From positions 151,854 to 215,853 of the forward strand of contig CAVSHO010000011.1 in NCBI GenBank assembly GCA_963727825.1: a stretch of DNA of 64,000 nt. Reading direction: 5' to 3'. The position numbers and the translations under genes are program-made. Below the pieces are notes generated by a model. The model saw only the letters and a program-made list of their open reading frames with translations, had not been told where the DNA came from and searched no databases. This document shows, one piece after another, positions 18,434 to 45,009 of the stretch; position 1 is the first letter of the stretch, and every line of letters starts with the position of its first letter. The stretch comes from Ignavibacteriota bacterium. GTDB lineage: Bacteria; Bacteroidota; Ignavibacteria; UBA10030.

Positions 18434-18838
18434 CTACCATTCCTTCAGGCTCAATGTCACCGTTCTTCCTAAACGTATACCTGATATTACGGTGCAAGAA
18501 ATATTCTGATCTGTTTCGATCACTTTGCCATGTCCGATAACTACATTCTTTGGAATTCCATCAGATAGGTCAACTATACCAAAACTTGTACCTTTCTCGC
18601 TTGACACTTGAATTAAAAGCTTCGTCTTCGCCGGCATCGGTTTGTTAATGGATGCCATGATCTTCCAATTGTTGGAATAGGTCGACAGGTTATAGTGTTG
18701 CTCTACCATTTTACTGTGAAAAGCGAGGAATCGATTGGAACCATTGTTCACCGAAATGAAACCTAAGAGCCTTATTTCATATGCACCGAGTGATGCTATT
18801 GACAGGAAGAATACAAGCACTAATAAACATTTTCGCAT
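18434..18838 (-). CDS. small secreted protein, paralog 1 of 3 (family unknown, possibly minor-pilin-like)
   Basis: Signal peptide MRKCLLVLVFFLSIASLGAYE. The mature ~113 aa are about 90% identical to the ORFs at 19390 and 20090. It ends GRTVTLSLKEW. Confidence 0.7.
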   Translation of the reverse strand: MRKCLLVLVFFLSIASLGAYEIRLLGFISVNNGSNRFLAFHSKMVEQHYNLSTYSNNWKIMASINKPMPAKTKLLIQVSSEKGTSFGIVDLSDGIPKNVVIGHGKVIETDQNISCTVISGIRLGRTVTLSLKEW

Positions 18839-18861
18839 TTTTTAAATCCCTCCATTCATCA

Positions 18862-19032
18862 CTATATGTATTCCTGATAACCATTAAGATTGCCTGTGAT
18901 GGAAATATCGGAAATCGGCTTCATTTCAAATGTGACCGATTGTGTAATGCTATTATTACTACTTTGTGAGCGTAGTTTAACAGATGTTGTGACTACTAGT
19001 AGGAAAAGGACTATGACACTAAGTATTTTCAC
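18862..19032 (-). CDS. possible 56-aa ORF with signal peptide (GTG start), below the track cutoff; pilin-N-terminus-like fragment
   Basis: Own translation: (V/M)KILSVIVLFLLVVTTSVKLRSQSSNNSITQSVTFEMKPISDISITGNLNGYQEYI*. Its signal-peptide DNA is homologous to the 5' end of paralog 2. Confidence 0.25.
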   Translation of the reverse strand: MKILSVIVLFLLVVTTSVKLRSQSSNNSITQSVTFEMKPISDISITGNLNGYQEYI

Positions 19033-19233
19033 CTGTATTGATTCTAAAATTTCTAACGAATAAACAGGGGAAATGGTTCCTGTACTTAAGAATGTATGGT
19101 CTTTATATGCTCATAGATAATTGAACTTTTATAATTGAATTGCATGTTATAATGATACATTGTTGTGTCATCGAGCTTTTGGGGGTAACGTTTATCCTAT
19201 AATTAATGGGATTCTTAATAAAAAAAATCACAC

Positions 19234-19248
19234 TGGCATATAGATTGA
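19234..19248 (+). promoter_or_regulatory. orphan sigma54-type promoter copy TGGCAT-ATAGA-TTGA
   Basis: Identical 15-mer to 45171-45185. The surrounding ~140 nt (19120-19290) are paralogous to 45061-45220, including a degenerate palindrome half-site at 19146-19158. Confidence 0.4.
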
Positions 19249-19389
19249 CTAATATTCCTTGTTCCTATTTAATCAGTTAATAGGAATTAAATCGACGTTG
19301 GATGCAGAACAAATCTATGGAGACGTGTACAGAGATACGTAGTTTATAGAAGTCTTATTTCCTACTGCCATTATGCTGATATTTGAGTG

Positions 19390-19851
19390 CTACCATTCCT
19401 TCAGGCTCAATGTCACTGTTCTTCCTAAACATGTACCTGATATAACGGTGCAAGAAATATTCTGATCTGTTTCGACCACTTTACCATTTCCGATAACTAC
19501 ATTCTTTGGAATTCCATCAGATAGGTCAACTATACCAAAACTTGTACCTTTCTCGCTTGACACTTGAATTAAAAGCTTCGTCTTCGCCGGCATCGGTTCG
19601 TCAATGGATGCAATGATCTTCCAATTATTGGAATAGGTTGACAGGTTATAGTGTCGCACTACCCTTTTACTATGAAAAGCAAAGAATCGATTGGAACCAT
19701 TATTCACTGAAATGAAACCTAAAGGCTTTATTTCAAAAGCACCGAGTGATGCAATGGTTATCATTATAGCCAATAGGAAAAGGACTATGGTAATAGGACT
19801 TTTCAACCTCCACCCTGTGTAATCTTTAACAAAAAGATTTTTTATAGTCAA
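19390..19851 (-). CDS. small secreted protein, paralog 2 of 3 (different N-terminus)
   Basis: The C-terminal ~110 aa are near-identical to paralogs 1 and 3. The N-terminal MTIKNLFVKDYTGWRLKSPITIVLFLLAIMITIASLGAFE derives from DNA similar to 18990-19030. Confidence 0.65.
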   Translation of the reverse strand: MTIKNLFVKDYTGWRLKSPITIVLFLLAIMITIASLGAFEIKPLGFISVNNGSNRFFAFHSKRVVRHYNLSTYSNNWKIIASIDEPMPAKTKLLIQVSSEKGTSFGIVDLSDGIPKNVVIGNGKVVETDQNISCTVISGTCLGRTVTLSLKEW

Positions 19852-19885
19852 GTACTTTTTTATTTAAATTCTATTAAAACATCCT

Positions 19886-20003
19886 CGCAATCCAGCCCGC
19901 CTGCTGCGGGCAGGCGTACGCGGGAGTCTAATGTTCTAGATACCTTCTGACTTTGCCGGGACGGGAATGACGCCACAAACGGCGGGGTATTAAACCCGAA
20001 AAA
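19886..20003. repeat. GC-rich MITE/REP-like intergenic element ending in GGCGGGGTATTAAACCCGAAAAA
   Basis: The 23-mer at 19981-20003 is identical to 26644-26666. It contains a GGGAATGAC motif and nested hairpins (CCCGCCTGCTGCGGGCAGGCG). Confidence 0.55.
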
Positions 20004-20089
20004 GAACAAATCTATTGAGGCGTGTAAAGAGATAAATCGTAGTTTAGAGAAGTCTTATATCCTGCTGCCACTATGCTGATATTTGAGTG

Positions 20090-20494
20090 TTACCATTCCT
20101 TTAAGTTTAATGTCACCGTTCTTCCTAAACGTGTACCAGATATAACGGTGCAAGAAATATTCTGATCTGTTTCGACCACATTGCCATTTCCGATAACTAC
20201 ATTCTTTGGAGTCCCATCCGACAGGTCAACTATGCCAAGACTTGTACCTTTCTTGCTTGACACTTGAATTAAAAGCTTTGTTTTCGCCGGCATTGGCTCA
20301 TCAATGGATGCTATGATCTTCCAATTATTGGAATAGGTCGACAGGTTATAGTGCCGCTCCACCATTTTACTATGAAAAGCGAGGAATCGATTGGAACCAT
20401 TATTCACCGATATGAAACCTAAGGGCTTCATTTCATAAGCGCCGATCGATGCAATTGACACGAAGAATACAAGTGCTAATAGACATTGTCGCAT
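20090..20494 (-). CDS. small secreted protein, paralog 3 of 3
   Basis: The start is taken at MRQCLLALVFFVSIASIGAYE by homology with paralog 1. The track ORF extends to 20548. Confidence 0.7.
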   Translation of the reverse strand: MRQCLLALVFFVSIASIGAYEMKPLGFISVNNGSNRFLAFHSKMVERHYNLSTYSNNWKIIASIDEPMPAKTKLLIQVSSKKGTSLGIVDLSDGTPKNVVIGNGNVVETDQNISCTVISGTRLGRTVTLNLKEW

Positions 20495-21126
20495 TTTTTT
20501 AAATCCTAACTGGTATTTTGTATTTATATTTGAATGCATGGTTTTCATTTACGAAGTGAATAGTTCACTTTGGATGCCATACAGACCAACCCTGACTTGT
20601 TTTTATGGGTTCTGTTAAACTATTGGAAACAAAGGAGTTAGGGCGTAGACAAAAAACAGCAGATTTTATCTTAGGTGTAAAAAATTGAATTTTCTACAAT
20701 GGTGATTCTGAGAATACAATTGATATCTATGAAAGAATCAGGATGGTAACAAAATAGGTAGATTGAGTGGAGTTTATTGCTGAACAAAATTGGAATTGTG
20801 GCAGAAGTCCATTGCGTTTTCTCTGGCACTCAAAACGTCAAAAAACTGCTATAACGGAGTTATAATGCCAAACGAAGATATGTAGTAGGAGAGTAAAAAG
20901 ATTTATTCCCTACTATGTTCAATATCCAGACACTTGTGTGGTCATTCCGGCGTTCCGAAGGAATCACTTTGTGAAAAGCCGGAATCCAGTAAATGAATAC
21001 CAGCATACGTTGGCATAACAAACATCTCACTGCTTATAGCAAGGATTATTTATTTGGTAATTGCAAAAACCGGTGGAATATTATCGGACGAAGAGAAAAC
21101 TACTCATGTGTTTCATCTTCTGTTTT

Positions 21127-24100
21127 TCATTTTTCCTCGAGGAGATTGTTCAATGCTTTTAAGCGAGATTCTACATTACGAGCATGGACATTATCAGGAT
21201 ACTGTTCATTGAGAGTCTGATAAGTGTTTCGGGCTTTTTCTCGCTCACCTGTCTGCTCGTACGATCTGCCCAACATATAGTACGCATCAGGTTTTTTATT
21301 TGACGAATTAATAGCAATAACTTTTTGGAAATGCTCTATCGCGTTATTATAATCACGGGTAGCATAATTGCATTCACCCATCCAATACTCACAATTACCG
21401 ACGAGAGATGTTTCAATTCCCATCTCAATTAGACTGTTAAATTTCACAAATGCCTCTTCGTACTTCTTCTCGCGGAACAGTGAAACTGCATCGGCATATT
21501 CTTCACGAAGCAAGGAATCACTATTTGCCTTCGATTCTGGCTGCGGCTCGGTCTCAGCTATTTCTTTATGAAGAGAAGTATCGATACCTTCATTCTGAGT
21601 TGGAATTGCTATCTGTTCCGTATATTCTTTGAGAATGGTGGAATCAGTTTTTTCTCTCTTCCCAGGCATAGAAATAATGAACTTTCTGACGGTATCTCTG
21701 GCTATGACTTTTGTCGTATCCATTTCTTGAACAGGTTTTGTAGTTTTTAACAGGCTTTCGCATACAATGACAAGGTCTTCAACTATATCCCCTTGCTTCG
21801 AGTGATGCACAGTAACAGGAAGCGGCCCGTTCTGCTGGATTGCTTGAAGAAATTTAAGTTGCTCGGGATCGACCGCAAGTGTGTAGCTCCCCGGCGCTAC
21901 AGCCATTGCGTAGAATCCCCCATCAGCAAATGTGCGAAGCGTATCGCCGAAATTTCCTTTGGTGGCACGCATAATTACTCGGCTTCCACTGAGTGGAGTA
22001 CGCATTCCATCCCTTTCTAAATAGACATTTCCAGAAATTGTCCCGGCGCGATAGAATGGGATTTCAATTCTCCTCATTTGATTCGGATCAACGACAAAAG
22101 AGAACTTATCGATTGTCGGCACTAAATTAGGATCGATCTGTTGTCTGTCGACCTCTAAATTGTAACGGAAGTAACTTTCCAGCTGCGTTACCCGGATAAT
22201 ACTGTCCCTACCAAGCTCGATCTTGCCCATTCCGTCTACTTTAATTCCGTTCGCGGGAATGAGCTCATCTCCGGCATCGTACTTACCGTTATAGTTGTTA
22301 TCGACAAACAATAATACATCAATGCCCCCTTTACCGATCTGTTCGCGATTTGATAGGAACGCCGTGCCGCGGTCAAGTGCCACTGAGCCATAAATTGATT
22401 GGCGGGAAGTACTGCTTTCATGTGAGAAGAAATCGAAGACCGAAGATGTTCGCGTAAAATTTAGGTCCATAATCAGGCCAGCCTCAAACGAAGTAGTGTG
22501 GATTGCAAAGTTGCGCTCATATCCCAGATTGAATTGGAAGATCTGCATAAATGTTTTAGAAAATTGGAGGCTCGCGTCCTGAAGGGTCCTGGCTTGCAAA
22601 TCGTATATTGCCTGGCCACGCAGGAGAAATGCCTGCAGGAAATTTGGAAGAAACGATGAGCGAGGCAGCGTGTACATAAGCGTTGTTGTGAAGAGACCGT
22701 TACCGGCTAAGTTCAATGGACTTACATCAGTGCCAACTGTTACTTCACTATAGCTCATCAGCAGCTGCATATTGGTAAACTGGGTTGAAAGATCGAATCG
22801 AGTTGACAAATGTTTTCCCGACACAGCATCCGTGTAGTCCTCGGAGATCCTGAATCCGGTGCCGGCAGAGATAAACGCGAGAGGCAAGGAGAGAGCCAGG
22901 CTTGCATTCTGCTGCGGCGATGTGCCGATAAGCGTATCATTCAATACATATTTTGCGTACGAGGCAAACACGCCGGCGTTGGAGGCAAATAAAGCATTCG
23001 CATTCAAGAGGTAATACGCATTCGGCGCTACATTGACATTGAAAATGTACTGGGAAAACAAGCGGGATGAAAATCCAAAATTATATATCGGTTTCTGGAG
23101 ACCGGTATTATCGCTGCGCTCGAGGCCGCCGTTGAGCGTTAGCCAGTTCGCAGCGCCATAGAGTAAATTTGCATTTCCATAATACGCATTATTCGTCGAT
23201 ACTGTATTATTATCCACTTTTCCTGCTTGTACATTGTAACTAAGAATCCCCTTTGGTACAAACGAGAATGGTATCTGAATTTGTTTCTCACTAACATTTA
23301 TATCACCATATTTGGAAAACGTTTTAACTGTAATTTTCTCTGTTCCGTACGTAAGCGGAAATTGAAATCGGTAGTAGCCCGCCGCGTTAGCTTTCTGAAA
23401 AGCAACCAGGCGGTCATTAAGGTACAATTCAACCTCGGACTGGGGATCGGTGAATCCATCAACGACATAATTATCAAACATTACACGAGGTTCGACGGGC
23501 TCATTTGATAAGGCAATGCCGTTGACTCTCGGAATAAAATTGCTGCCGGTCGTAATCTGACCTGCCGTGAACGAGCTAAAATAGTTATTCCCCCGTACAA
23601 CGTAACGCCAGTGGAGGTCGTCTACAGAAGCGGACTGCCCCGTTGTACCAATCAGGCTACCCTGAATATCCCCTCCAGCCACTTCACCCCCGCCAGTGAG
23701 CGTATAATTCGTTCCCTGTGACGAGAATTTGTCTAACGAAGTAGATATGTTGTAGTCTAGGACGGAGCCACCGAGGACTGAACGATCGAGAGCATAACGC
23801 AGCGGATATTTCACCGACGGGCCGAAGTCGCTTCCTACTTCCGAGCGTGCCAACGCTGCCTTCTTGCGAACGAGCGCAGGTAATTCCTTGGACGTCTCGC
23901 CGATAATCTGAAGACGGTTAATATTGACTGTGCTGCTGATACCAAAGATTTCTTCGAATTTTTCAGTAGATATGTAAATATCCATCTCCCCTTTGAACAT
24001 CTCTTCCAGCGTCAGTACATATACTTTATCTCCAAGGGAAATCTCATGCCTGACCGGATTGATTGTCATTGGTATTGCAGAGGAGATATATGTCCCTTTA

Positions 24101-24384
24101 ATGATATATTGTCCCTCGATGGTATAATACACTTCAAAGATATTAAACAATTCTATAATAGGAAGATAGATTTTGTCATTCTTAATTGCGACTGATATGT
24201 TATAGCTGCCCAATTCCTTGAGAGTGTACCCAAATATTACTTCATCATATTGGGAGGCTTGCTGCGATAGCGATTGGGATGGAACAAGAAAATAGAATAA
24301 AAAAAATATACTAAGCGTTAATAGCAGATTTCGCACAACGCCATTATGGTTTTTTGATGGGATGAACTCACATTCCAGCGACAC
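21127..24384 (-). CDS. large outer-membrane usher-like protein with CarboxypepD_reg-like and TPR (YbgF/CpoB-like) domains in its C-terminal part
   Basis: Signal peptide. An N-terminal region resembles usher N-domains, and the segment SEVELYLNDRLVAFQKANAAGYYRFQFPLTYGTEKITVKTFSKYGDINVSEKQIQIPF is usher-like. A long middle part is beta-strand rich and aromatic-terminated. GTISGNVYLERDG...GSYTLAVDP looks like CarboxypepD_reg. The C-terminus has TPRs (YWMGECNYATRDYNNAIEHFQKVI..AYYMLGRSYEQTGEREKARNTYQ). Confidence 0.45.
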   Translation of the reverse strand: MSLECEFIPSKNHNGVVRNLLLTLSIFFLFYFLVPSQSLSQQASQYDEVIFGYTLKELGSYNISVAIKNDKIYLPIIELFNIFEVYYTIEGQYIIKGTYISSAIPMTINPVRHEISLGDKVYVLTLEEMFKGEMDIYISTEKFEEIFGISSTVNINRLQIIGETSKELPALVRKKAALARSEVGSDFGPSVKYPLRYALDRSVLGGSVLDYNISTSLDKFSSQGTNYTLTGGGEVAGGDIQGSLIGTTGQSASVDDLHWRYVVRGNNYFSSFTAGQITTGSNFIPRVNGIALSNEPVEPRVMFDNYVVDGFTDPQSEVELYLNDRLVAFQKANAAGYYRFQFPLTYGTEKITVKTFSKYGDINVSEKQIQIPFSFVPKGILSYNVQAGKVDNNTVSTNNAYYGNANLLYGAANWLTLNGGLERSDNTGLQKPIYNFGFSSRLFSQYIFNVNVAPNAYYLLNANALFASNAGVFASYAKYVLNDTLIGTSPQQNASLALSLPLAFISAGTGFRISEDYTDAVSGKHLSTRFDLSTQFTNMQLLMSYSEVTVGTDVSPLNLAGNGLFTTTLMYTLPRSSFLPNFLQAFLLRGQAIYDLQARTLQDASLQFSKTFMQIFQFNLGYERNFAIHTTSFEAGLIMDLNFTRTSSVFDFFSHESSTSRQSIYGSVALDRGTAFLSNREQIGKGGIDVLLFVDNNYNGKYDAGDELIPANGIKVDGMGKIELGRDSIIRVTQLESYFRYNLEVDRQQIDPNLVPTIDKFSFVVDPNQMRRIEIPFYRAGTISGNVYLERDGMRTPLSGSRVIMRATKGNFGDTLRTFADGGFYAMAVAPGSYTLAVDPEQLKFLQAIQQNGPLPVTVHHSKQGDIVEDLVIVCESLLKTTKPVQEMDTTKVIARDTVRKFIISMPGKREKTDSTILKEYTEQIAIPTQNEGIDTSLHKEIAETEPQPESKANSDSLLREEYADAVSLFREKKYEEAFVKFNSLIEMGIETSLVGNCEYWMGECNYATRDYNNAIEHFQKVIAINSSNKKPDAYYMLGRSYEQTGEREKARNTYQTLNEQYPDNVHARNVESRLKALNNLLEEK

Positions 24385-24641: not shown

Positions 24642-25490
24642 TCATTGCAAATTCACGGCCACTTCTTTAGTCACAGGTTGGGCTTGCAACAAATCTTCCG
24701 TCGCAACATCCGACCGCTTGGTTTCAAATGTCAGAAGAAGTTTATACTTACCCTTTGCCACTTTTGAAAGGTCAAGGTCTATTTTGTTTTTCATGCGAAA
24801 ATAAATTGATGCTGTCGCCTCGGACAAAGCTACCTTTTCATTTGCAGCAGAAAACAATTCTGCCTTCATACTGCCGACGTAAGGCGCGTTGCCAGTACGC
24901 TCCACATCCGCAACAACAGTTAGCTTATTGTCCTTCAATGCTGTATTAACATCGTGTACGATCAGGCCGGTAGAGACATTCCCTTTCCTGTAGAAAACAG
25001 GAAATATCTGGTCAAACTTGAAATTGACTTGTGCCGTGATTGCATCGGTTACTTTTTTCCCGATGTCGGGCGTTTTCTGAGCCGACGTTACCTTAACTCT
25101 GGAAAAAAAGAAAGCATCCTTAACAGAACTCTTCGTGCGCACTTGCAACCTAACAGTTTGTTCTTGTTTAGCATTCAAAATAAAACTTCTTGGATAAGCA
25201 CGGACCATTGGATTTAGCGCGTACGTTTTTGCAGCAACCGTATCGTTGTAATTCATTACGGCATTGCCCATACTGTCAGCATCGGTATATCCAAATGCAA
25301 AGCTTATGCTCACTTCTTGAGGAGCTGCAGAATTGTTTGTGATATACATATTCCCGATCCCGCTCTTGGAATCAATAAAGAGAATCGAGGGCGCTACGGT
25401 TACCTGGGCAAAAAGCATTTCTGTCCCCAGGAATATTATGGGTATCAGGAAGACAAATAATCTGGAACTGCAACACGACAGGCGTTTCAT
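24642..25490 (-). CDS. PapD-like periplasmic pilus chaperone (putative)
   Basis: Signal peptide, then VTVAPSILFIDSKSGIGNMYITNNSAAPQEVSISF and PRSFILNAKQEQTVRLQVR, which match the two conserved strands of chaperone-usher chaperones. 282 aa. It lies directly downstream of the pilin gene. Confidence 0.5.
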   Translation of the reverse strand: MKRLSCCSSRLFVFLIPIIFLGTEMLFAQVTVAPSILFIDSKSGIGNMYITNNSAAPQEVSISFAFGYTDADSMGNAVMNYNDTVAAKTYALNPMVRAYPRSFILNAKQEQTVRLQVRTKSSVKDAFFFSRVKVTSAQKTPDIGKKVTDAITAQVNFKFDQIFPVFYRKGNVSTGLIVHDVNTALKDNKLTVVADVERTGNAPYVGSMKAELFSAANEKVALSEATASIYFRMKNKIDLDLSKVAKGKYKLLLTFETKRSDVATEDLLQAQPVTKEVAVNLQ

Positions 25491-25573: not shown

Positions 25574-25602
25574 AACAAACAGAAAGCCCTGACGTAAGGG
25601 CT
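25574..25602 (-). terminator. hairpin plus T-rich tail after the major pilin gene (terminator/attenuator)
   Basis: On the minus strand: AGCCCT-TACGTC-AGGGCT then TTCTGTTTGTT, about 55 nt after the pilin stop and before the chaperone-like gene. Confidence 0.5.
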
Positions 25603-25656
25603 TCCTGTTTATAACATTCTAATAAAGCAATAACTAATGATAATTGCAACGATTTT

Positions 25657-26169
25657 CTATTTGTATTCGACTGAAAAAGTCGATGCGCCTGTGAATGCAC
25701 CCAGATCCGTACCTGTTGTCATGGTTCCTCCAACCCACAGAGAATAATTGTTACTACTCGGTACCACGTCAGCACCAGAACTCAATAAACTAGCGTTTGC
25801 TAGTGAACTAGGGTCACCATAAACAGTGAGTGCCAACGACAAGGTTTTTCCTCCTGGACCGTTGAGCGTAATAGGTGATTGCCAACTTACTAAAACATCT
25901 GTATTTGCTCCAGTGATTGTAACCGTGCCAGCGGCAGCTTGGGAACCTAAATATGCGTTATTGGTTGAAGTTTTGGGATCGAGAACAACCGACCTGCTTG
26001 CCGGAACGTTACCAAACGCTATGTCGGTTTTAGCAATCGATAAAGCTGATATAACAGTCGCATTAGCATTGACATTGGTACTAACATTAGTCTGTGCCTG
26101 CATATTGCCGGCGACTAAAATCACCAGAATTGCTACTAAAAGGGTGGATGTAAAAATATTGCGTAACAT
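25657..26169 (-). CDS. DUF4402/SCPU-like pilin (putative major subunit)
   Basis: Signal peptide LVAILVILVAGNMQAQ. ISALSIAKTDIAFGNV..., GTVTITGANTDVLVSW, YSLWVGGTM and the C-terminal GAFTGASTFSVEYK fit the DUF4402 / spore-coat-U pilin pattern. GGAGG lies 5 nt before the ATG at 26169. Confidence 0.6.
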   Translation of the reverse strand: MLRNIFTSTLLVAILVILVAGNMQAQTNVSTNVNANATVISALSIAKTDIAFGNVPASRSVVLDPKTSTNNAYLGSQAAAGTVTITGANTDVLVSWQSPITLNGPGGKTLSLALTVYGDPSSLANASLLSSGADVVPSSNNYSLWVGGTMTTGTDLGAFTGASTFSVEYK

Positions 26170-26251
26170 ATGTACCTCCATTAAATTATTTGTTTATTTA
26201 TTGTGTATTAATTTTGTTTATTGCTTCTATTAATTTCTTTCTTTACTTATC

Positions 26252-26266
26252 TCAATCTCCGTGCCA
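26252..26266 (-). promoter_or_regulatory. sigma54-type promoter TGGCAC-GGAGA-TTGA upstream of the pilin gene
   Basis: The reverse complement of TCAATCTCCGTGCCA has -24 GG and -12 spacing exactly as in the consensus TGGCAC-N5-TTGC, except A replaces C at the last position. The flanks are conserved with 44924-44938. Confidence 0.6.
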
Positions 26267-26338
26267 ACATAAATTCCCGCTTTTTTCAACGATTTTCAAG
26301 CATTTAAAAAACTATTATGTCCATAATGAGATTGCTGA

Positions 26339-26349
26339 CTCATATTGAG
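26339..26349. promoter_or_regulatory. palindrome CTCATATTGAG (proximal activator-site candidate); imperfect extra copy at 26321-26330
   Basis: It starts 78 nt from the -24 box, versus 77 nt for the equivalent site at the giant-gene promoter. Confidence 0.45.
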
Positions 26350-26412
26350 AATTTTGATATTTACTGTAAACACGCGATATTCTCAAAAAACCAATATTCT
26401 CAATATATTTCA

Positions 26413-26427
26413 GTATCATAATGATAC
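26413..26427. promoter_or_regulatory. perfect palindrome GTATCAT-A-ATGATAC (distal activator-site/UAS candidate)
   Basis: Identical 15-mer at 45084-45098. It starts 152 nt from the -24 box, versus 151 nt there. Confidence 0.55.
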
Positions 26428-26549: not shown

Positions 26550-26666
26550 AAATATGGGGTAAGGATCACCGAAACAAGTGGCGCTGTACACCATGGCGCC
26601 AAAGGCGCTCATTCGGCATGACAATCTATAATACGACGCAAGCGGCGGGGTATTAAACCCGAAAAA
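26550..26666. repeat. GC-rich MITE/REP-like element, second copy
   Basis: It ends in the exact 23-mer GGCGGGGTATTAAACCCGAAAAA (26644-26666) and contains the hairpin GGCGCTGTACACCATGGCGCC and CATGACAATCTAT, as at 24527. Confidence 0.5.
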
Positions 26667-26808
26667 TAATGAAACCATTAACAAATATTGTTTTAGAAGA
26701 ATATACTATGGGACAGTTTCTTCGAAGTTCAGAGATTAAAAAGTCGAATTATCAAAAGGATTTTATAGCTATTTGTTGCTGGATTAATCTATAGAAGAAT
26801 GGGTCTTT

Positions 26809-27398
26809 TTACAAATACTCGAGAGTTATAATCGAGACAGGCAATTTACCATTATTACTTATTGTAGCTTTCTGATGATGGACTAAGAAAAATGTATACG
26901 CGACAAAAAGTGGGTCAATAGCTTTCATCGAGCGCTTTAAAAGATTATTATTTCTTAATCTAAATTGCACAAAATTTCCGTCTGTGATTATCGCCCGATT
27001 GAAATAAGTTGTCCCATCATTTAAATATCCGCAGTTAATTCGCATCGGATAGACACTCTGTTCATTCTTTTGAGACAATCCGGGCTTGTAAAACTCAGAA
27101 GAACAGTAATATTTTCATAAGCTGAGATAGAGAATCCAAAATCGAGGCTAACGATATCTTCATTACCAGGTTTTGCTGATGCCAATTCATTCAAATGTGT
27201 TATATCTTCTGCAAACAAAGTTCTCAAGTTATCATCCATCCTAGTAATATTTACAGATGGTAAAACATTTAGCTTGACCTTCATCAAAGGCGTTATTTGT
27301 GCCTGACTCTCTCCCGACAGCCCGACGATCAATGCCATTGCGACTACCGCAGTTCCGATTATGCGAGCATGGAAGCTATGCCATCTTTGATTCGTCAT
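26809..27398 (-). CDS. pilin-like secreted protein, split by one frameshift (27021-27078) in this assembly
   Basis: Two overlapping ORFs. Signal peptide IIGTAVVAMALIVGLSGESQAQ. The C-terminus ...GKLPVSIITLEYL resembles the neighbouring pilin C-termini. Probable start is MTNQRW at 27398. Confidence 0.45.
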
Positions 27399-27405
27399 AG
27401 CTATA

Positions 27406-28020
27406 TTATGGATATGTTGAGTAATTAACAGAGACACTTATTGTTCCAGTATAATATCCCGCATTCACATTGCCCACAGGCCCTAACTTTCCATACAGAA
27501 ATATATATGCCGTTGCAGAGGGAGCTGTATATCCACCGTGTGCAGGAGTTGGGGGCGGTGCAGGTACACCCGCAGTCCTTCGAAGCATCGGAAGTGTTAT
27601 TGCGGAAAATCCTGCAGGGACTTCAACAGCACTCGTCTTTGCCGTGGCCGCATCGCTACTTCCAAGATTTGAATAGGCGAAGTTACAGGTGAACGGTATC
27701 TGGCTGCTCGCTCCTGCAGTCATGTACATAGGAGCGGATATTGTTACCGTAATATCCCTCGTCGCATCACCTACAATTGTAATATACTGAGTTTCGTTGT
27801 CGGTCAATGTGATAGTGACTGTTGCACTGCTGTTGCTAACAATTTCCGGTTGCTTATCATTAAAGTTCAAAGTAGCACCATTACTTGCGACCAGAGAAAT
27901 GCCCACAGAAGTTGTATAGGCACCAAAATTTATTTTTTGTGCAACTCCAAAGCTGATCACAAACACACTCAATAGTATCAGCATTCCCCATCGTTTCAGT
28001 ATGTGTGTAAGCGAGATCAT
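27406..28020 (-). CDS. DUF4402/SCPU-like pilin subunit (204 aa)
   Basis: Signal peptide; LNFNDKQPEIV, TVTITL and C-terminal AGYYTGTISVSVNYSTYP (the G-x-Y-x-G-T-x-x-V-x-V-x-Y pilin tail). Confidence 0.5.
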   Translation of the reverse strand: MISLTHILKRWGMLILLSVFVISFGVAQKINFGAYTTSVGISLVASNGATLNFNDKQPEIVSNSSATVTITLTDNETQYITIVGDATRDITVTISAPMYMTAGASSQIPFTCNFAYSNLGSSDAATAKTSAVEVPAGFSAITLPMLRRTAGVPAPPPTPAHGGYTAPSATAYIFLYGKLGPVGNVNAGYYTGTISVSVNYSTYP

Positions 28021-28520
28021 AAAATGTACTCTACATCGATTTTCAGTTCCATTGTGTAATTACCGGGCATAATGTCTTCAAGGCCTGAAAGTTGTCCTCC
28101 CACCCACAGATAATACTCTCCCCTATCACTCAGCTTGACTTCATTCTGCGTGAGAAGGATCGATTCCTTCTGGATATTATAAGTATTTCCGCTGACATTG
28201 TAGGTGAAGAAAAGTTGCGATTGGCCGTTTTCGTGCCGCAGAATCGATTGTTTTTCATTTGTAATCCGCACGAGACTGTTCGGAGAGCCGACGATTTTTA
28301 TCATTCCAGAATGCAAGTCTCTTTGTGGGTCAATATTGAGATCTGTCGGCGAGAGATTGCCAACTTCAAATTCCAGGTCCTTCATCACAATCAGATCTAC
28401 ATTGCCAACAACATTTGCGGAGGCAGTGATCCTTGCCACAACCTGATCCGTATTTTGTGCTTCTGCAATGTACCCGATAAGCAAGCTGATCGCAAGTAAA
28501 TATGTCAAATATTTTATCAT
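28017..28520 (-). CDS. DUF4402/SCPU-like pilin subunit (167 aa)
   Basis: Signal peptide LLAISLLIGYIAEAQ; ITASANVVGNVDLIVMKDLEFEVGNL, YYLWVGGQL and C-terminal PGNYTMELKIDVEYIL. There is a 4-nt overlap with the giant gene stop. Confidence 0.55.
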   Translation of the reverse strand: MIKYLTYLLAISLLIGYIAEAQNTDQVVARITASANVVGNVDLIVMKDLEFEVGNLSPTDLNIDPQRDLHSGMIKIVGSPNSLVRITNEKQSILRHENGQSQLFFTYNVSGNTYNIQKESILLTQNEVKLSDRGEYYLWVGGQLSGLEDIMPGNYTMELKIDVEYIL

Positions 28521-31500
28521 TTAAGTACAACCATTTTTTTAGTTTGTGTTTTTTCTGCCGCGGTCATCCTGCAGAAATATACGCCGCTGGCAACATTTGA
28601 TGCATTCCACACCACGAGATGATTCCCGGCTGAGTATTCCTGATCAGTCACAGTGGCGACTTGCTGGCCCAGGATATTGAATACCCGGATCGTTACGCGC
28701 GTTTGTGCTGGAATTGAAAAAGTAATGTTCGTCGTCGGGTTAAACGGGTTCGGATAGTTCTGTGCCAGTTGAGGAGTAGTCGGAAAATATCCTGACAAAC
28801 TATTGTTTGCCGAGACAACCAGACGGAAACGGGACTCTGAAGCGCTGCTCTTCGCTAATTTGGCAGCGGGAACTGTCTGCACGACAGGCTGTGGTAATGC
28901 ATGTAATGATTGACGATTCGATGCAACACCAGATCCCTTTTGTAAAAGACTACTGCTCGACGATATCAAGTCGGCTGGTGTAGTGTACTGGAATGTCAGG
29001 TCGCCCGCTTCTATCATTGAGGCCGCTGTCCCGGAGACATCGTCCATAAGAAAGATGTTCCAGCCAACAGGAAGCTGTCCGTTCAAATTCCAACTAAGTG
29101 TAAATGAGCCGTTAAACGGTTGACCACCAACTGTCCCGCCAACGTACAACGGAAGTGTGAACGGTTGAACAAAACCTGTATCGGGTAAATTCTGGATTTG
29201 CATAGCGGGCTGGCCCGTTCCGGCAACAGAGTAAAGTATTAAATAATTATCAGAGAGCGGAACCAAACTGAACGCATCGTACGGATCGTATGTTATCTTT
29301 CCGCTGGGGCTGAACATCAAGTACGCTTGCGTTTGAAGCCCATTAGCTGAGAGCTCTAATTCGAGAACAGGCGCCGAATCATTGATACCCAAACTTTTCT
29401 TGTCGGATGTGTTTTTTGCAAGTGAGGCCGGCTTCGCGATGCTCGTGCTTTTCTTCCCGGCAGAATCCGGCGAGACAGATGCCAACGTGCCTTTACCTGC
29501 AGATTTCTTTCCGAGGAAGTTGCCCCCTGTCGCTTTCACTCTATTGTCGCATTTCAGTGAGGGACTGGCGGCGTTTGCTTTCACCCAGAATGCTTGAAAT
29601 GGTGTTATCAATCCACCTGTAATATTTCCCGTTGAGCCATTCCAATATTTGTAGTTGCTCGTGGCTGGATCCCAAATATAAATTGTTCCATCAATGTTCG
29701 TCTTTGTCCACCCTGACCCCGCATTCCAATTGATCGTGGAAGGAGTCGGGTTGCCGACCAGGTTCCAACCTCCATCGATAGAGTCGATATCTGTAAAAGT
29801 TTTGCTTTTTGATGTATCATTGGAACCTACCGGCGTCGCAGTGACGCCAAAATCGAATGCCGAGGTTAGCAGATTCTCCGTACCTGTGGCAGTCATCGTT
29901 AGCGGAAGGACATCGCTGTAATTGCTGGCTATATCAGGTCTGAGCGCACCATTAAATACATAGTACATGTATCCCCTTCCCAACTTAACGGCAACGGAAT
30001 CCATTCTCCACGCCTGCAACGATGTGCCCTGACTCGTTTCATCCCACCACAGCAGATTGGGTTGCAGAGAGGGATAACTCGATCCCGTAAAGCCCTGTGT
30101 GACGAAGGGTGCTGCAAACATTGAACTGACTGTTACGCTATCGGGAGCGGCGAGCATGCGCCATCCTTCGGTTCCGGTTATCGTGTACATCACCTGAAGT
30201 GTAGGTGCACTGCTGCTGAGGTTGATATAGTTCGATCCTTCATTGATAATTATTTTTCCTGCGGAAATAGAAGCGCCGGATTCGATTTTGAGATTTGAAC
30301 CGGAACCGATATATACATTGTTGGTCACACTAAAACTATTATTATTATCAAACGATCCACCATTGTCTACTATTAAACTCGTAATTGTTACACTGGTGTT
30401 TAAAGTGTCTGCAAAATTATTGCTGATATGTACCGTATCAATTGACATCGGCACCCTATAATTCCAGGTAGCAGCGTTACTCCAATCTCCGCTTGCAATT
30501 GAGGTAATTAGAAGAGGCATAATATTTATGCCACCTATTGTAAAGAAATGATTATCGAGGTTTACGAGTGTCGAAGTGGCAACCGTACCCGAAGTCTGTC
30601 CATTGTCAGTAACAACCTGACCGACAGCATTCCAAGGAATAAGCCATTCGACCACCCTTGTAAGAGCGCGTGTTGATGCCGAGCTGCTCATTCCTGTGTA
30701 TTGGTCCCAGCTTAAAACAACATTTGCGCTTCCACCTGATGGACCAATAATATTCCAATATTCATTATTCACAACTGATTGTAATGGAGATACCATCTGT
30801 GTAGTGTTATATCCAGCGGTTGTAGGATCCTTATCAAAAAATTGTGCCGTCCAAGTTTGTGTTCCTGAAGTAGAAGTGCTATTTACTGAAACATATCCAA
30901 TCCGGTTTCGGCTTGAGGAATTTGCATCTCCAACCGGAAATTGGAACGATGAGCCATTAATTATTTTCTTACTTAGCGGCCCGTTTACAAATGAATTATC
31001 GCTTCCACCAACAACAGCACTTGAACTTGTATTGGTAATAGTCAGGATATTGTTGGCAATGTTATTAAAATTAATGTTTCCCAATGTCAGCAGAAGCTGA
31101 TCGCTTATATCAACAGTTCCGGTATTAATAGTTAGTCCCGCAGCATTATTTATTTCGAGGTCATAGAATGTCTCTTTCATAGAATTACCAGACATCAAAA
31201 TACTTTGTGCTGCCGAACCGCTGAAATGCACAGCACCTGTTCCAGCAGTAAAGCCAGCAATACTCGTGTTTTGATCAATCCAGTTTCCAAGAACGAAAAG
31301 GTCTTTATTGTATAGAGTATTATCCAATCTGCTGCCATCAGAAATTGTTATGTTGCCATTTATCTTTGTATCAACGCTACTGATGTACTTTTTGCCGGTT
31401 CCTGAGAATATTACTTGTTGATAAGGTTTATTTATATTTCCCGGATTTAAAGGCATTGTGCCATCAGTGTTCCCATAAAACTCAACAGTACTTGGTAAGT

Positions 31501-34500
31501 TCGCAAGAAATAAATCGTACGATCCGCCTGGGAATATGAATATAGCACTGCCAGTAGGTGACATACGTATTTTTCCTGTACCTGATACCTGCCCGATATT
31601 ATTAGATACCGTATTCGTTGCATCGAGCACTCCTTCGATATCTACTGAAGATGCAAGCGCTCCATTAACGCTAATAGTTACAGTGTGGGGAGCATTTATA
31701 ACAACCGAGTGGCCATTTGGGACAAAGGAAGGAGACCAAACTGTTGCATCATTCCAATTTCCTGATTTTGTGCTATATAATATCGGTAATGAAATAAATT
31801 GATCTCCAATCGTATACGATCCATCTAAGAGCGAAGTGCTGCTAAAAGAAAATGTTGGAGAACTTATTGTTCCTGGTGTAACAGTTGTCCATGCGGCTGT
31901 AGAATTATCGCACCGTTCAATATTCGCAGGACTTCCAGTTACATCAGCGGGGATGTACGTGTACGAATGCGTTACATTATAAGTTGATGGCGAAAAGCCT
32001 GTTGTTACCACCTTCCAATAGTAATTCAAATAATTTGAATAGTTTGCAGGATTAATTGATGGGTGTAAATCATCTATTGGAATGACGTTTATGGTTGCTC
32101 CTGCCGCATTAGTATTGGCGGTAAAGTTATATGTGCAGGGAGTGTATTTTCCATTAGCACCTATAGGATAAGTAAACGATGAAGCGCCGTTCGGGAATAT
32201 CTTTGTAACTCCTATATCACCTAATACACCATTAAGAATAACATGGTTTGTTCCACTGGCACCTACAATTATAACGCTTTGCCCAAAAGTCAAAGAATAA
32301 TTATCGATGTATAAATTACCATTAGTAAACTTGAGCTGACCGTTAATCGTCGAATTGTCGGTCATATTAACGCCATGCCCGCTGTTGTTGATTTCAATGT
32401 TACCGAAAATTCCGCTTCCGCTGCCTGTCATCCCCTGGTTGGCTGTTCCCTTAAAAATCATTCCACCGCTTGTTGAAGAACTGTAGTGAGTAGCGTTGTT
32501 GTTAACATTATTCAATAAGGTTATTGTATTTCCATTGTCGTTCAACGTGCCGGAGCTTAATGTCAAATCACCGTTAATGGTGATATTGCTGCTGCTTAAT
32601 GATATGCTATGCCCGGCAGCAGTGGAGACATCCAAATTAGCGAAGTTAGTAATATTAGAAGGAGAAGTTGTGCCGGTTATGGTTTGGTCAGTGCTTCCTA
32701 CAAAACCGGTGGATTGCGTAAGCACCTGAGTTTGATAACCACCGACATTGAGTCCAACAGTAGATGTTGTATTGTTATTTATCAAATTCCCGCCGATAGT
32801 GACATTAAGTCCATTAGTATTATAATAACTTGATGTTCCACCGATAGTCAAACTTCCGACAAGAGTTAATGGATATATTTCCTGTATTGCCGATGATTTT
32901 GTCGTCGCTTCGAGTGTAAGGTTTCCTATAGAACATGAAGATTGGAAATAGAACAATGTACTAGCAGGTGTAACACCCGAATATCCAAACTGTATCGTGC
33001 CACCGGTGACATTTTCAATGTCGGGATCTAAATACAAATCATAAGGAGAGCTATTATTGATATCATTGGCAATTATGATCGTGCCATTGCTCACGGTAAA
33101 CTTGCTTCCGCCATTTAGTACTTCAAACACGGCTCTTGACGTACTAGCATTTTTACCACCTATGGTAACGGTCCCACCTGTTTGTGTATAATTCAATGAA
33201 CCAGAGGTGGTTCCTGTTCCGCGCCTTATTTGTGAATAGACATTGAGAGATCCGCCTGAGATAATAATTTCAGGAGTGCCTGCCGAAGCATAGACAGTAT
33301 TAAAAGCATTGGCAGATGCTGATGCTATAGCTGGGCCAATATTGACTGCTCCTGCAATTATTTCCAACCGGCCAACAAGAGATAAATCAGCTGCCGCAGC
33401 ACCAGTGGCTATATTAAATGTACCTCCATTCGCAGAAAGACATGCCGTGCTCGGTATTGAGAAACCGCCTACAGAAAGAGGCATTGTCACGTTTGAAGTT
33501 AATCTGAACGTCCCGTTCTGCAAATTAAGACCGCCACCGCCCATTTGAAAACCTGTAGGATCGACATTAACATTTAAGATAGAATCTTTTGATGTGCCTT
33601 TATTGACTGTTATGCCGTATAAGCGTGTTCGTGTCGGTGTAGAAGTACTGGTAAGAGATTTACTTAATGAACCTGTAAAAATAAGAGTACAATAATAATT
33701 ATCATTAGTCGGATAGTTCGAGTCTAAATCAAATGTTCCGTTATTAATTATGTTTCCATAAACTGTTAAAGTGTTTGCTACTGAATTACCACCATTTCTA
33801 ACTTGCAGCACTCCACCGGACGCAATGTTAATATCGTTATCGGCAATTACGTACTCGGCAAGATTGTTCTGGTATTGTAATATTCCGTACTGATTTATAT
33901 TGATATTACCTTTTACTTCTATAGTTGTTGAGCTTGCACCGGCGTTAATCTGCGTTATGCAATTTGATGTGCCGCCCCCGGATGAACATCCCGCTGTCAA
34001 ATTATTATAAATCGTCAAGTTTGAATTAGGCAAAATTATATTCGATGCATTATAAGGTGAAGTAATAAGATTATAGTACCCGGTAATATTCGCTGTACCT
34101 CCACCGGGCAAAGTATACGTTGTCGGTAATGTAAGTGTCCCTGCGGCAGCCTGATAATATTCCACCGTCCCACCGGAAGGTCCTAAGAAATTTCCCCAGT
34201 CGCCAGCAGGGAAATATGTTGAGCTGGCAATTCTCAATGTTCCACTACCCGTAGAAATTGAGCCGAAACTATGTCCATTTATAATTCCTAAATCGAGTGT
34301 TGAACCGGATTCAATAGTTAAGCTGCTTGAAGAAGCTGCTACTGGAGTTGTAACTGTGTAAGGACTGCAAATGATTACCAGAGTACCAGCGGTAGGTGTG
34401 CCACCACCACCAATGCCGCCTCTTGTTGTGGACCAAGTATTAGCATTATTCCAAGGACCACTCACAACACTATATAAAGTAGGGATGGCACCAAATGCTG

Positions 34501-37500
34501 TAGCAGGATCACCGGCTGTATATTCTCCGTCAGCAATACTTGTATTATAGGTGACCTGGTTTGTAGTGGTATTCACTCCACTTGTAGTTAATGAACTCCA
34601 GCTTGAACCATTATAAAGGGCAGGAACATAATTTCCTTCAGTGCCGGCTACAAAATAATTAGATGCGGCATAATCGTAATAATAAATATTGATAACCGAA
34701 CTGGCCGGAATACCTGTGAAGCCAGTACTGGTTGCCTTCCAGTAGCAAGTTAAAGCATTATTAGAACCTTGCGCTAACGGATGCCTTCCATTAACAGGGT
34801 GTGTTGTTACCGTTCCATAGGCAGTTGGCGCAGTAGTGAATTGTATCGAGTGCGGCATATAATAGTATGTTGCATTCGTATAAAAACCAAACGGAAAAAC
34901 AAAAGCCAATGTATTGGCATAAGTTTTACTTACCCCTCCGTCGGAAAGCAAGCCGCTGGTTTGAATCATCTTGTTATTGTTAAAAGTCGTACCAATATTT
35001 ACATCGGAATAAACCATAGAATTTGCGCCTAATGCAAGGCGATAGCTGCCAATATTAAGTATATTCCACACGCCTGTTGTTGTACCAGCCAATCTTAAAT
35101 TACCTGTAACAGCCATATTAGCTGTAGCAGTAACAGAACCGCCCGTTTTATTTAATGTCAGGTTATTGAAAATTCCTGCTCCGTTTCCACTCAGCGTTTG
35201 CGCTGCGGTACCAGTCAGAATTATAGCGCCTGTACTGACTCGGCTTATGTGTGTTCCGCTATTAATAATATTTCCGTATACAGTGACAGTTTCGCCGCTG
35301 TCATTCAGAACCGAGTTCTGATCTATAAAGAGCGCACCGTTCACAATCACATTATTATTAATAATTGAGGTAAGGGATGAGTTTGTAATAGTAAGATTGT
35401 TCAGTCCACCTGTAATGGTTCCTACATTATTGAAAGCTTGAGCGCCTGTACTGTTAAATGTTGTTGTCGAAGTCGTACTAGGCGTGTACGTGCCTCCTGA
35501 CGAAATAGTAAAATTATGTCCCACGTTCAGACTAATAGTACTTGTGTTCAAGTTTAATACAGAAAGGTTGCCAATGGTTAGATCATGCAAGACACTAAGG
35601 CTCGAACCTGGTGTATTCCATTGAACAGTTGTAGTCCCTGTTCCAGTCCGGTTTGATATATTCACATTATAAAATGGGACTGTTGAATTTGCCGTGTAGA
35701 CGGTAGCAGAGCTTGGTACGTTAATATTTATTGTTCCACCGGTAACATTATAATTTCCTGCTTGAGATTCAATATCCATAATTTGGAAATCTGTAGTACC
35801 ACCAGAAAAAGTATTATTCGTAAAATTGATTGTTCCCCCGCTCATAGTAAAGGAAGAATTTACATTACTAAGTCCAAACATCGGCCCTGCATGGTTTTCT
35901 CCCAGTAATTGGAAGTTCGCTGTTCCACCTGTTTGTATATAACTCATCTGATTAGTGCCACCTGTGGAAGTCCATACCTGACTAGCAACCAATGTGCCGG
36001 TTCCTTCGATCATAATTACAGGTGTTCCTAATGTTCCTAAAACCATACCGGCTGCATCGCCCATAGAAAACGAACCCCCACTTAGACGCAATGTGCCGTA
36101 CAATGTAGCCGCCTGATAGCCGGTTCCATTAACGCCTGATAAAGTGGTTGAAACAGTAGCGCCATTAACCCATAATTCAGCAGTAGGTATAATATTAAAG
36201 TCTTGTCCGCCTTCTGTTAGAGATGGGACGTTAATATTTGCATCGAGCTTCAGCGTACCATAATGAATAAAGAGCGCCTTATAATATGCTCCATATCCAA
36301 AGCCCTCTGGTTGACCATCAAACTGGTTATTACCCTGGTTATTGGGAGCGTAAAGAGCAAAATTACTCGTACTGGAAGAATTGACTTCTAATGTATAGGT
36401 CTTGTCTGTTCCTTTTTCTACGATAAGTCTGAAAAAGTCTGTTGTTCCATTACAAGTGACAGTATTGTTTGTTGCACCATGGAAGAAAACCTGAACATCG
36501 CCACAATTTGTTCCGCCCCAGGCCGTCGTTGTAAGTATATAGTATGCACTACTGTCCGGTGATGGCAACCCTGTAAAACGAATAGAACCATTATTCACCA
36601 AATTGCCGTATAGTGATAATGTGTGGACACCAGAATAAGTTACGGGAAGTGCCGGCACCGCAGTCGGATTAGGAATTCCGTGCGCAGTTGCAAAATTATT
36701 TACCCTGACATTGCATCCGGCATCGACAGTAAAATCTCCATAGACAGTCATGTTGATAAGGCTATCTGAAGGTGTCAAATTGCCAAAATAGAGTGTCTGG
36801 GTTCCCGACGAATAATTTTTTACACTCAAATTTCCATTAATAGTATATGTTATAGGGCCAGCGTTGTTGCTAAAGAAGTAAGAACTGATTGCACTCGTAG
36901 TATTATTTGAAATTATCAAATTGTTGTACGTAAAGGGAGACGGAGTAGCGGGGGGGATGCTGACACCATTAAGATTGTAGAACTCTATCGTTCCACCGCC
37001 GCTTGCAACAAAACTCGTATAAGTTCCACCGGGGAAAGTATTAGAACTAAGCTTTATTTTCCCTTGTCCTGATACCGTTCCAAAATTATGTCCGGTAGTG
37101 GACCCAATGTCAAGAATGCCCCCTGAATTAACTGTGAGTGTATTTACTTGTTTAGTATTCGCGCTGATAGAAATTGTTCGGCCATTGAGAATGGTAACGA
37201 TATCTGAATTTGCTGGAACACCGGAATTTATCAACGTTGTACCTGAAGGATCTGATGTCCAGGAAGATGCATTGTTCCAATCGCCCGATTGATACGAATA
37301 ATATGTATTCGAAGTTGACGGTGCAGAAGAGCCGGCGGTCCACTTTCCTGAAATCGATGCAGCCGATGCACCGGATGTGTCTGTTCCAAATGGATTAGCA
37401 GCAAGTGCTGTGTGTGTGCCAGGTGCTGATACCCAGGATGATCCGCCGTTATACCAGGTATCATATAGCGATCGTCCACCGGGCGCTTCGGCATTATTAT

Positions 37501-44547: not shown

Positions 44548-44923
44548 GAATTACAAATTATTATCTATGATAGATTCTTATTCCATTATTAATCTGCGAA
44601 AGCATTGGTTGCCATCGGTTGCACATGCAATTGCTGCTTGCTAGAAAGGTACGGTGTACACACTTCAATTCTCCCCCAGAAGTTTACATACAATGCCTTT
44701 TCCAGAAGTGTCATGCCCACCTTTATTCTCTTCATATGTAAAATACGCTTTATTAAGTTCTGTTTCCCTTACAAACTTTCCAGATTTCAATGAACTTATA
44801 TAAACTGCTTAACATTTTTTTTATAGTAAAAATCTATTCATTTGATAACCAAGAATGAAAGGGATAGTATAGTTTTTTAAAAAAATCATTACTTATTTAA
44901 CCTATTTATTCATATAAATTATG

Positions 44924-44938: not shown

Positions 44939-45009
44939 TCACAGATTCCCTTTTTTAAGGAATTTTCGAGTAATCAGTTCAGACTTGTGCACTATTTCGA
45001 GAATATTGA

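Follow-up and report, generated by a model that had tools for sequence, protein, structure and literature searches.

The window, that is, the whole stretch of 64,000 nucleotides analysed here, carries the genes of a chaperone-usher-like pilus and a giant adhesin operon on the minus strand, and a two-component system on the plus strand. The major pilin gene (25657–26169, minus strand) encodes a 170-aa protein of the DUF4402 family, whose homologues carry PF14352. Comparison with orthologues makes the ATG at 26169 (MLRN..., with GGAGGT in front) the most likely start, and not the ATG at 26181 assumed in the preliminary description of this DNA. The 5' leader of about 71 nt (26170–26240) is A-rich and unstructured, folding at only -0.8 kcal/mol. 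The structure model of the pilin (pLDDT 64) gave Caf1, CfaB, FimA and CsuA/B as best fold matches, all weak (E = 0.01–0.1); residues 25–53, which follow an N-terminal signal peptide-like helix, are disordered in this low-confidence model. A chaperone gene (24642–25490, minus strand, 282 aa) was recognised from its structure model and Foldseek: the model (pLDDT 85) matched EcpB, Caf1M, SafB, CfaA, CsuC, FimC and PapD (E = 1e-8 to 1e-6, probability 1.00) and has the predicted two-domain fold of PapD-like chaperones. At the sequence level neither the pilin nor the chaperone showed homology to solved structures, and fold comparison alone gave matches. Between the two genes lies a terminator-like hairpin of 16 pairs (25575–25612, minus strand), with an equivalent behind the pilin genes in loci L003 and L002. 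This hairpin likely acts as an attenuator fixing the proportion of pilin to assembly proteins, and would leave pilin in excess over chaperone and usher.

The next gene on the minus strand (21127–24384) encodes a usher-like protein of 1085 aa. Its match to PF00577 is weak (18.7 bits over 54 residues, under the gathering score of 27.1), and it also contains a CarboxypepD_reg domain and a C-terminal TPR domain. NCBIfam offered no name for the pilus proteins. Downstream of the usher-like gene, a small secreted protein family is represented by three paralogues in tandem (18434–20548, minus strand); in other genomes this family is found directly behind the promoter module described below. The adhesin operon (26809–44541, minus strand) consists of the giant adhesin gene followed by three minor pilin genes with DUF4402 hits. 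The giant adhesin gene itself (28517–44541, minus strand, about 5,300 codons) starts at 44541 and is syntenic with its counterpart in L004. Its product has a hydrophobic, signal peptide-like N-terminus, the gene contains frame breaks, and the C-terminus carries a Por_Secre_tail domain (PF18962, 52.8 bits, E = 4.9e-14, cut-off 27) that marks the protein as type IX cargo. A conserved long 5' leader was discarded as a general feature of the adhesin gene, being common to L004 only and not to L026 or L019.

On the plus strand, a histidine kinase of about 247 aa (45236–45979) possesses dimerisation and catalytic domains only, with no recognisable sensor domain and no membrane domain. It is followed by an NtrC-family sigma-54 activator of 459 aa (46028–47407, plus strand) with the full domain set of that family: a receiver domain (PF00072, 2.8e-26), an AAA+ domain (PF00158, 4e-70), PF25601, and the HTH_8 domain (PF02954, 1.6e-8). 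Its loop ...EKGSFTGA... contains GSFTGA, one residue (A to S) off GAFTGA. The best NCBIfam scores of the regulator were to AtoC, NtrC and a PEP-CTERM regulator, all under the cut-offs. RpoN was not among the 20 ORFs of the window that were scanned against Pfam; its presence in the genome is implied by the sigma-54-contacting activator, through established co-distribution only.

The region upstream of the pilin gene (26252–26427) holds a sigma-54 type -24/-12 promoter, TGGCACGGAGATTGA (26252–26266, minus strand), detected both by motif search and with a matrix of the promoter family, and transcription is predicted to start near 26240, given that sigma-54 promoters fire about 12 nt beyond the -12 element. 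Upstream of it, on the same strand, follow an A-tract spacer conserved across copies, GAAAATCGTTGAAAAAAGCGGGAATTT (26271–26299), a proximal activator site 2, CTCATTATGGA (26320–26330), centred about 61 bp upstream of the GG of the -24 element, and a proximal activator site 1, TTCTCAATATGAGTC (26337–26351), centred 80 bp upstream. The most distant element is a perfect 15-bp palindrome, GTATCATAATGATAC (26413–26427), found by motif search and by its conservation; it begins 161 bp upstream of the first base of TGGCAC and is centred about 156 bp from the -24 GG. The A-tracts of the spacer begin 10–11 bp apart, and from this phasing the spacer is likely an intrinsic bend or the site of an architectural protein. 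In the sigma-54 consensus TGGCACG-N4-TTGCW the GG and GC doublets stand exactly 10 bp apart (PMC2725144). Both TGGCACGGAGATTGA and the corresponding adhesin promoter, TGGCACGTAGATTGA, keep this spacing and have a perfect -24 half, with the -12 doublet reading GA and not the canonical GC. Enhancers of sigma-54 promoters are marked by dyad-symmetric sites about 80–200 bp upstream that are conserved along with promoter and activator gene; in this family three sites keep their distances in 46 copies and are linked to the regulator genes.

The same arrangement precedes the giant adhesin operon. Its sigma-54 type promoter TGGCACGTAGATTGA (44924–44938, minus strand), found by motif search, is conserved in L004, L026, L031 and L054. 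The proximal sites 2 and 1, TCTCGAAATAG and TTCTCATTATGAGTC, lie at 44992–45022 on the minus strand according to motif search and alignment, site 1 being centred 79 bp from the -24 GG. The palindrome GTATCATAATGATAC, located here by motif search, recurs at 45084–45098. It is common to two divergent promoters, as its centre is 155 bp from the -24 GG of the adhesin promoter and 82 bp from that of a third sigma-54 type promoter, TGGCATATAGATTGA (45171–45185, plus strand), which faces the kinase-regulator operon and is served by the palindrome only. Transcription of the adhesin and kinase-regulator operons is predicted to start near 44912 and 45197, respectively. All three promoters thus have one site centred 79–82 bp from the -24 GG, roughly at -105; this position is occupied by the palindrome at the kinase promoter and by proximal site 1 at the pilin and adhesin promoters.

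The kinase-side promoter overlaps with the start annotated for the kinase ORF. Its TGGCA-N6-TTG bases are kept at about 20 orthologous loci, where the preceding ATG is not, which argues that TGGCATATAGATTGA is the sigma-54 promoter of the kinase-regulator operon; a start of the kinase ORF at 45167, with TGGCATATAGATTGA as coding sequence, was rejected on the same ground, and 45236 is the most likely start. The -12 element alternates between TTGA and canonical TTGC among these loci, and in GC-rich relatives the promoter reads TTGGCACGTnGnTTGA. Self-control of the two-component system through 45171–45185 is supported by these data, and the feedback is presumed to be positive.

The preliminary description had proposed that the pilin and adhesin promoters share one module of promoter and upstream sites with spacing conserved to 1 nt, and motif search recovered each of its elements at both loci. 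These comprise CTCATATTGAG at 26339–26349 and its counterpart CTCATAATGAG at 45010–45020 as well as the half-conserved extra copy CCATAATGAG at 26321–26330. The distances of 78 and 152 nt at the pilin promoter versus 77 and 151 nt at the adhesin promoter hold when counted from the 3' end of TGGCAC. This 1-nt offset arises in the interval that separates the second proximal site from the -24 box, and it recurs in L004 (161 versus 160). The block of about 35 conserved nucleotides just upstream of the -24 box is likewise real in the alignment. A formal alignment of the two upstream regions, proposed in the same description, gave a local score of 53 versus 13.8 ± 2.0 in 500 dinucleotide shuffles (z = 19.7), with conservation in discrete blocks and diverged sequence between them. 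Apart from itself, the pilin upstream region has no better match anywhere in the window than the adhesin upstream region, and the exact palindrome GTATCATAATGATAC occurs only twice in the 64 kb, at 26413–26427 and 45084–45098. Chance resemblance of the two upstream regions is excluded.

A position weight matrix was made from 46 promoters of the family and picked only four sites in the window (26249–26269, 44921–44941, 45168–45188 and 19231–19251), below which the score falls from 18 to 10 bits; the pilin promoter was the top match with 34 bits. The core TCAWWWTGA alone was not enriched in the window (8 hits versus 4.4 ± 2.1 expected) and was dropped as a genome-wide marker. The fourth matrix site belongs to a third, incomplete and decayed version of the divergent intergenic region (19130–19290, plus strand), with ATGTTATAATGATAC at 19144–19158 and TGGCATATAGATTGA at 19234–19248. 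This copy duplicates the kinase-facing half only and has no proximal sites, no minus-strand promoter and no ORF downstream. A complete third module at about 19.1–19.3 kb driving a downstream paralogue was considered and dismissed: with only a palindrome-like site and the kinase-side promoter remaining, the copy is a relic.

Loci in related genomes carry the same module. L004 (Ignavibacteriales), whose pilin is 50% identical, shows full synteny, with the module preceding the adhesin gene (160 bp) as well as the pilin gene (161 bp) and with the kinase-side promoter. The module is also present at L003 and L002, where the pilins are only about 30% identical, and at L008 and L009 (64–69%). Tandem pilin genes each have a separate copy; the second copy in L002 has lost the promoter-bearing stretch, and in L001, L010 and L011 the pilin homologue lies directly behind another gene, without a promoter of its own. 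The preliminary description had named relatives with the genes and without the motifs as the case that would speak against the module; the outcome favours it, since in L002, L003, L004, L008 and L009 (30–69% protein identity) every pilin homologue with an upstream intergenic region of its own carries it. Across nine copies from five genomes the invariant blocks are the palindrome, the two proximal sites, the A-tract spacer and the -24/-12 box.

Metagenome contigs were scanned with the pattern palindrome-N(135–155)-TGGCAY-N5-TTG, which yielded 50 instances on 49 contigs. About 42 of these belong to the family described here and eight are unrelated sigma-54 promoters with the same palindrome, some of them with two or three tandem copies, which fits a generic activator-type site. 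Together with the genomes, and after removal of duplicates, 46 distinct copies were obtained. All contain the palindrome GTATCATWATGATAC, the proximal sites TTCTCAnTATGAGTCA and TCTCAnTATGG, the A-tract spacer and TGGCACG-N4-TTGA. Most copies were found by a pattern requiring the exact palindrome and the -24/-12 core, so that the conservation of these two elements in the pattern-found set is partly built in, and only loci found through proteins are unbiased in this respect. The consensus of the 46 copies reads tGTATCATtATGATAC-(about 60 nt)-aTTCTCa.taTGaGtCa..a.TcTca.taTg..aCa in its 5' part, and in its 3' part continues with a spacer containing gaAAatc..aAAAA..ggaattt and then TGGCACg.aGaTTGA, a box that is invariant in these copies. 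The palindrome lies 157–165 bp from the -24 box in the 46 copies, and 159–165 bp in 44 of them.

The copies fall into two classes. Those of class B are pilin promoters behind minor pilin genes, while those of class A (about 20) adjoin kinase and regulator orthologues in divergent orientation, the regulators being 73–95% identical over the aligned N-terminal stretches. The gene downstream of class A copies varies, being a giant adhesin, a DUF4402 pilin with its chaperone, a member of the small secreted family or another secreted protein. As an independent check, loci were fetched through the regulator protein alone, and all three found in this way repeat the layout, with sigma-54-like -24/-12 elements on both sides. 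L065 (79% regulator identity) and L066 (75%, from a GC-richer genome) have the exact palindrome, with sigma-54 promoters at 165 and 162 bp on one side and at 73–74 bp on the other, whereas L067 (66%) has a degenerate distal site and recognisable proximal sites. In all three loci the module faces an operon encoding small pilin-like proteins, a chaperone-sized and an usher-sized protein. The palindrome is absent from more distant relatives, namely the Candidatus Kryptonia loci L062 and L063, and L064, where the module is reduced to a sigma-54-like box.

Comparing the window with ten other loci, we found the module to be 75–85% and the leader 70–93% identical, while the pilin coding DNA is 54–79% and the pilin proteins are 28–68% identical. 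The module is therefore more conserved than the pilin genes, which points to stronger purifying selection on the regulatory DNA than on the surface-exposed subunit.

Taken together, we consider it highly probable that the major pilin gene is transcribed from an activator-dependent sigma-54 promoter at 26252–26427, driven through the neighbouring kinase and regulator. A sigma-54 promoter requires an activator, and the genes of such activators are usually found beside their target promoters, with PilR-pilA as a precedent (PMC2725144). From the motifs, their order, spacing, conservation and gene linkage we infer which protein binds the sites, as well as the dependence on rpoN, the bending of the DNA and the direction of the feedback. 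Sigma-54 RNA polymerase would wait as a closed complex on TGGCACG-N4-TTGA. The small kinase (45236–45979) would phosphorylate the response regulator (46028–47407), whose dimers would bind the three related inverted repeats with the core TCAnTATGA, about 61, 80 and 156 bp upstream of the -24 GG, and assemble into an AAA+ ring. With the DNA bent by the phased A-tract spacer, the ring would reach the promoter by looping and open it. The corresponding elements at 44924–45098 would drive the operon of the type IX-secreted adhesin in the same way, and the distal palindrome of that promoter would also serve 45171–45185, facing the kinase-regulator operon, and thereby create positive feedback. The shared regulon proposed in the preliminary description, made up of the pilin operon, the adhesin operon and the two-component system itself, is thus supported by conservation, by linkage to the regulator and by the promoter at 45171–45185, as far as sequence comparison can tell.

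One alternative concerns the range of sites that the regulator binds. The promoter might be of the sigma-54 type with the neighbouring regulator binding, for example, the distal palindrome only or the proximal pair only, and the remaining sites serving some other protein, be it another activator, a repressor or an architectural factor. The half-sites indeed differ outside the core TCAnTATGA (distal GTATCAT versus proximal TTCTCAn), the kinase-side promoter uses the palindrome alone, and the same palindrome stands at unrelated sigma-54 promoters. Nevertheless, hybrid sites exist: proximal site 2 of L012, L014 and L015 includes the distal half-site and has the sequence TTCTC(G/A)ATATGATAC, and L067 has a proximal-type sequence at the distal position; each of the three promoters places one site 79–82 bp from its -24 GG, and the neighbourhood contains no second conserved regulator gene, judged from the synteny with L004 and from L065–L067. 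We therefore regard such partial binding as rather improbable, and a single binder for all three sites is favoured, though not proven. Since the palindrome also occurs at unrelated sigma-54 promoters (L013, L018, L045), the site alone does not identify this regulator. The palindromes could be bound by a regulator encoded elsewhere, and the adjacency of kinase and regulator could be incidental: other NtrC-family activators are surely present in the genome, L066 contains a further one at a distance of about 3 kb, and binding by the neighbouring regulator is deduced from sequence. Against this stands the divergent layout in about 20 pattern-found and three of three regulator-found contigs, which span 66–97% regulator identity and different downstream target genes, and the same site also feeds a separate sigma-54 promoter of the kinase-regulator operon. 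We hold this alternative to be very unlikely.

There is hardly any chance, in our view, that the similarity between the two loci goes back only to non-coding DNA having recently been duplicated or converted, without regulatory constraint, or that it reflects a structured RNA leader. Promoter cassettes do duplicate along with pilin genes, as in the tandem pilins of L003, L008 and L032, and the window itself contains the decayed copy at 19130–19290. That copy, however, exemplifies what becomes of an unconstrained duplicate, whereas the pilin and adhesin copies are conserved in discrete blocks only, with diverged sequence between, and these blocks are retained in 46 copies, with the identity of the coding DNA falling as low as 54%. 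A structured RNA or riboswitch was discarded, as no Rfam family matched in the region and the pilin leader is unstructured. An activator-dependent sigma-54 promoter under the neighbouring two-component system remains the reading we prefer.

In function, the nearest known systems are NtrB-NtrC with glnAp2 and PilS-PilR with the sigma-54-dependent pilA of Pseudomonas, Myxococcus and Geobacter. In the latter, too, an NtrC-family regulator is encoded beside its target, and the major pilin gene is activated from a -24/-12 promoter through upstream sites (PMC2725144). The present system differs from PilS-PilR in that the target is not a type IV pilin, but a DUF4402 subunit with a PapD-fold chaperone and a usher-like protein, that the kinase has no membrane or sensor domain, and that the regulon includes a type IX-secreted giant adhesin. 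Furthermore, one enhancer site is common to two divergent sigma-54 promoters, and the regulator is no orthologue of PilR. With NtrB-NtrC and glnAp2 the system has in common several dyad-symmetric activator sites 80–160 bp upstream, activation by DNA looping, as proposed here, and positive self-control of the regulator operon (glnALG there, presumed here). NtrC recognises a 17-bp site, TGCACCA-N3-TGGTGCA. By contrast, the site described here is the 15-bp GTATCATWATGATAC, the -12 element has GA, and surface structures take the place of nitrogen assimilation genes as targets.

Archaic (sigma-type) chaperone-usher pili such as Csu of Acinetobacter are thin pili of Ig-like subunits with a periplasmic chaperone and an outer-membrane usher (PMC9452303). 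Their subunits belong to the SCPU family, those of the present locus to DUF4402; at its C-terminus the usher-like protein of the present locus has a TPR domain (SPOR at L065–L067), and the hosts are Ignavibacteria-like members of Bacteroidota. Csu pili, too, are under the control of a two-component system, BfmRS, as is proposed for the present pilus. BfmR is of the OmpR type and acts with sigma-70, while the regulator here is of the NtrC type and would act with sigma-54. A full-text literature search returned no paper mentioning DUF4402 or the palindrome, and judging by the titles and the opening lines of the abstracts no comparable system of sigma-54 and chaperone-usher pilin was among the papers found.

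The locus represents a real surface-adhesion regulon that recurs in dozens of uncultured Ignavibacteria-like bacteria, with an ordinary mechanism in which regulator binding and rpoN dependence are presumed. As the mechanism follows classical sigma-54 enhancer logic, its value lies in annotation and experimental design and not in a new principle. The analysis provides a precise, testable regulatory map of a surface-adhesion locus in uncultured Ignavibacteria-like bacteria of peat and wetlands, comprising three promoters, their activator sites and a candidate regulator. It ties a chaperone-usher-like pilus and type IX-secreted adhesins to one switch, and the 175-bp signature finds members of the regulon in metagenomes. 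As a tentative and more far-reaching possibility, which we would not yet call probable, the module may be the control unit of an as yet undescribed organelle for adhesion in Ignavibacteria-like Bacteroidota. A DUF4402 chaperone-usher-like pilus and a type IX giant adhesin would then be co-expressed, both switched on by the sensor-less kinase and its sigma-54 activator, with the shared enhancer providing positive feedback. If this is true, that feedback could give all-or-none expression, and a strongly conserved promoter cassette copied in front of fast-diverging, often tandem pilin genes would allow lineages to swap or add pilin variants without rewiring their control.

Downstream of the usher-like gene with the C-terminal TPR domain lie three tandem paralogues (18434-20548, minus strand) of a small secreted protein family, which share 89-94% identity over 300 nt and gave no match in Pfam. 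Genes of this family are the first behind the promoter module in seven other contigs (L017, L021, L030, L038, L050, L051, and L055); judged from this arrangement, the small secreted proteins are therefore predicted core members of the regulon.

In the same stretch (19130-19290, plus strand), part of the intergenic region that separates the divergent kinase and adhesin genes recurs as a decayed copy, in which TGGCATATAGATTGA is the same sequence as the kinase promoter. This relic lacks an open reading frame of its own and points into one of the paralogues (19390-19851) in antisense orientation; it is present in L061, another assembly of this species, and absent from the fully syntenic Ignavibacteriales genome L004. 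A 47-nt GC-rich repeat (…CGGCGGGGTATTAAACCCGAAAAA…) is present in two copies (19970-20016 and 26633-26679), both set in AT-rich intergenic DNA. As the repeat is missing at the orthologous position in L004, it resembles a small insertion.

Several reading-frame shifts occur close to the 5′ end of the giant adhesin gene (43620-43800, minus strand), and a minor pilin gene is broken at 27021-27078 (minus strand) into two overlapping open reading frames of 138 and 89 aa. The counterpart of this split gene is a single intact gene of 209-210 aa in L004 and in L003, a locus found via the pilin protein. The frame breaks at both places probably reflect indel errors in the assembly; alternatively, the genes would be pseudogenes.

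About 370 nt of 5′ leader (44542-44912, minus strand) precede the adhesin gene; this leader is 81% identical to that in L004 and has no counterpart in the other adhesin-type loci compared (L026 and L019). It contains the palindrome TTGCATGTGCAA and, in repeated copies, ACTTCTGG; neither a match in Rfam nor a conserved small open reading frame was found in the leader. The histidine kinase (45236-45979, plus strand, about 247 aa) contains the phospho-acceptor and ATPase domains but lacks both a membrane segment and a sensor domain, and orthologues match it in size (254-271 aa as called).

Tandem pilin genes in other loci (L003 4723-6567, L008, and L032) show weak mutual similarity, and each stands behind a near-identical full promoter module. 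Module and pilin gene thus appear to have been duplicated together as one cassette, with divergence of the pilin afterwards. In a sister version of the system, represented by three loci found via the regulator protein (L065-L067), the usher-sized protein carries a SPOR domain in place of the TPR domain; judged from its loci, this version is predicted to share both the module and the controlling kinase-regulator pair.

The identical 15-bp palindrome was also observed, at similar distance, upstream of unrelated sigma-54 promoters (L013, L022, L042, L018, and L045); one of these promoters, for example, precedes an Hsp20-like gene, another a gene for a lipoprotein, where the site is doubled in tandem, and in front of a further gene the site is present three times. 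Its recurrence before unrelated promoters suggests that the palindrome may be a widespread recognition motif of activators with a Fis-type helix-turn-helix.
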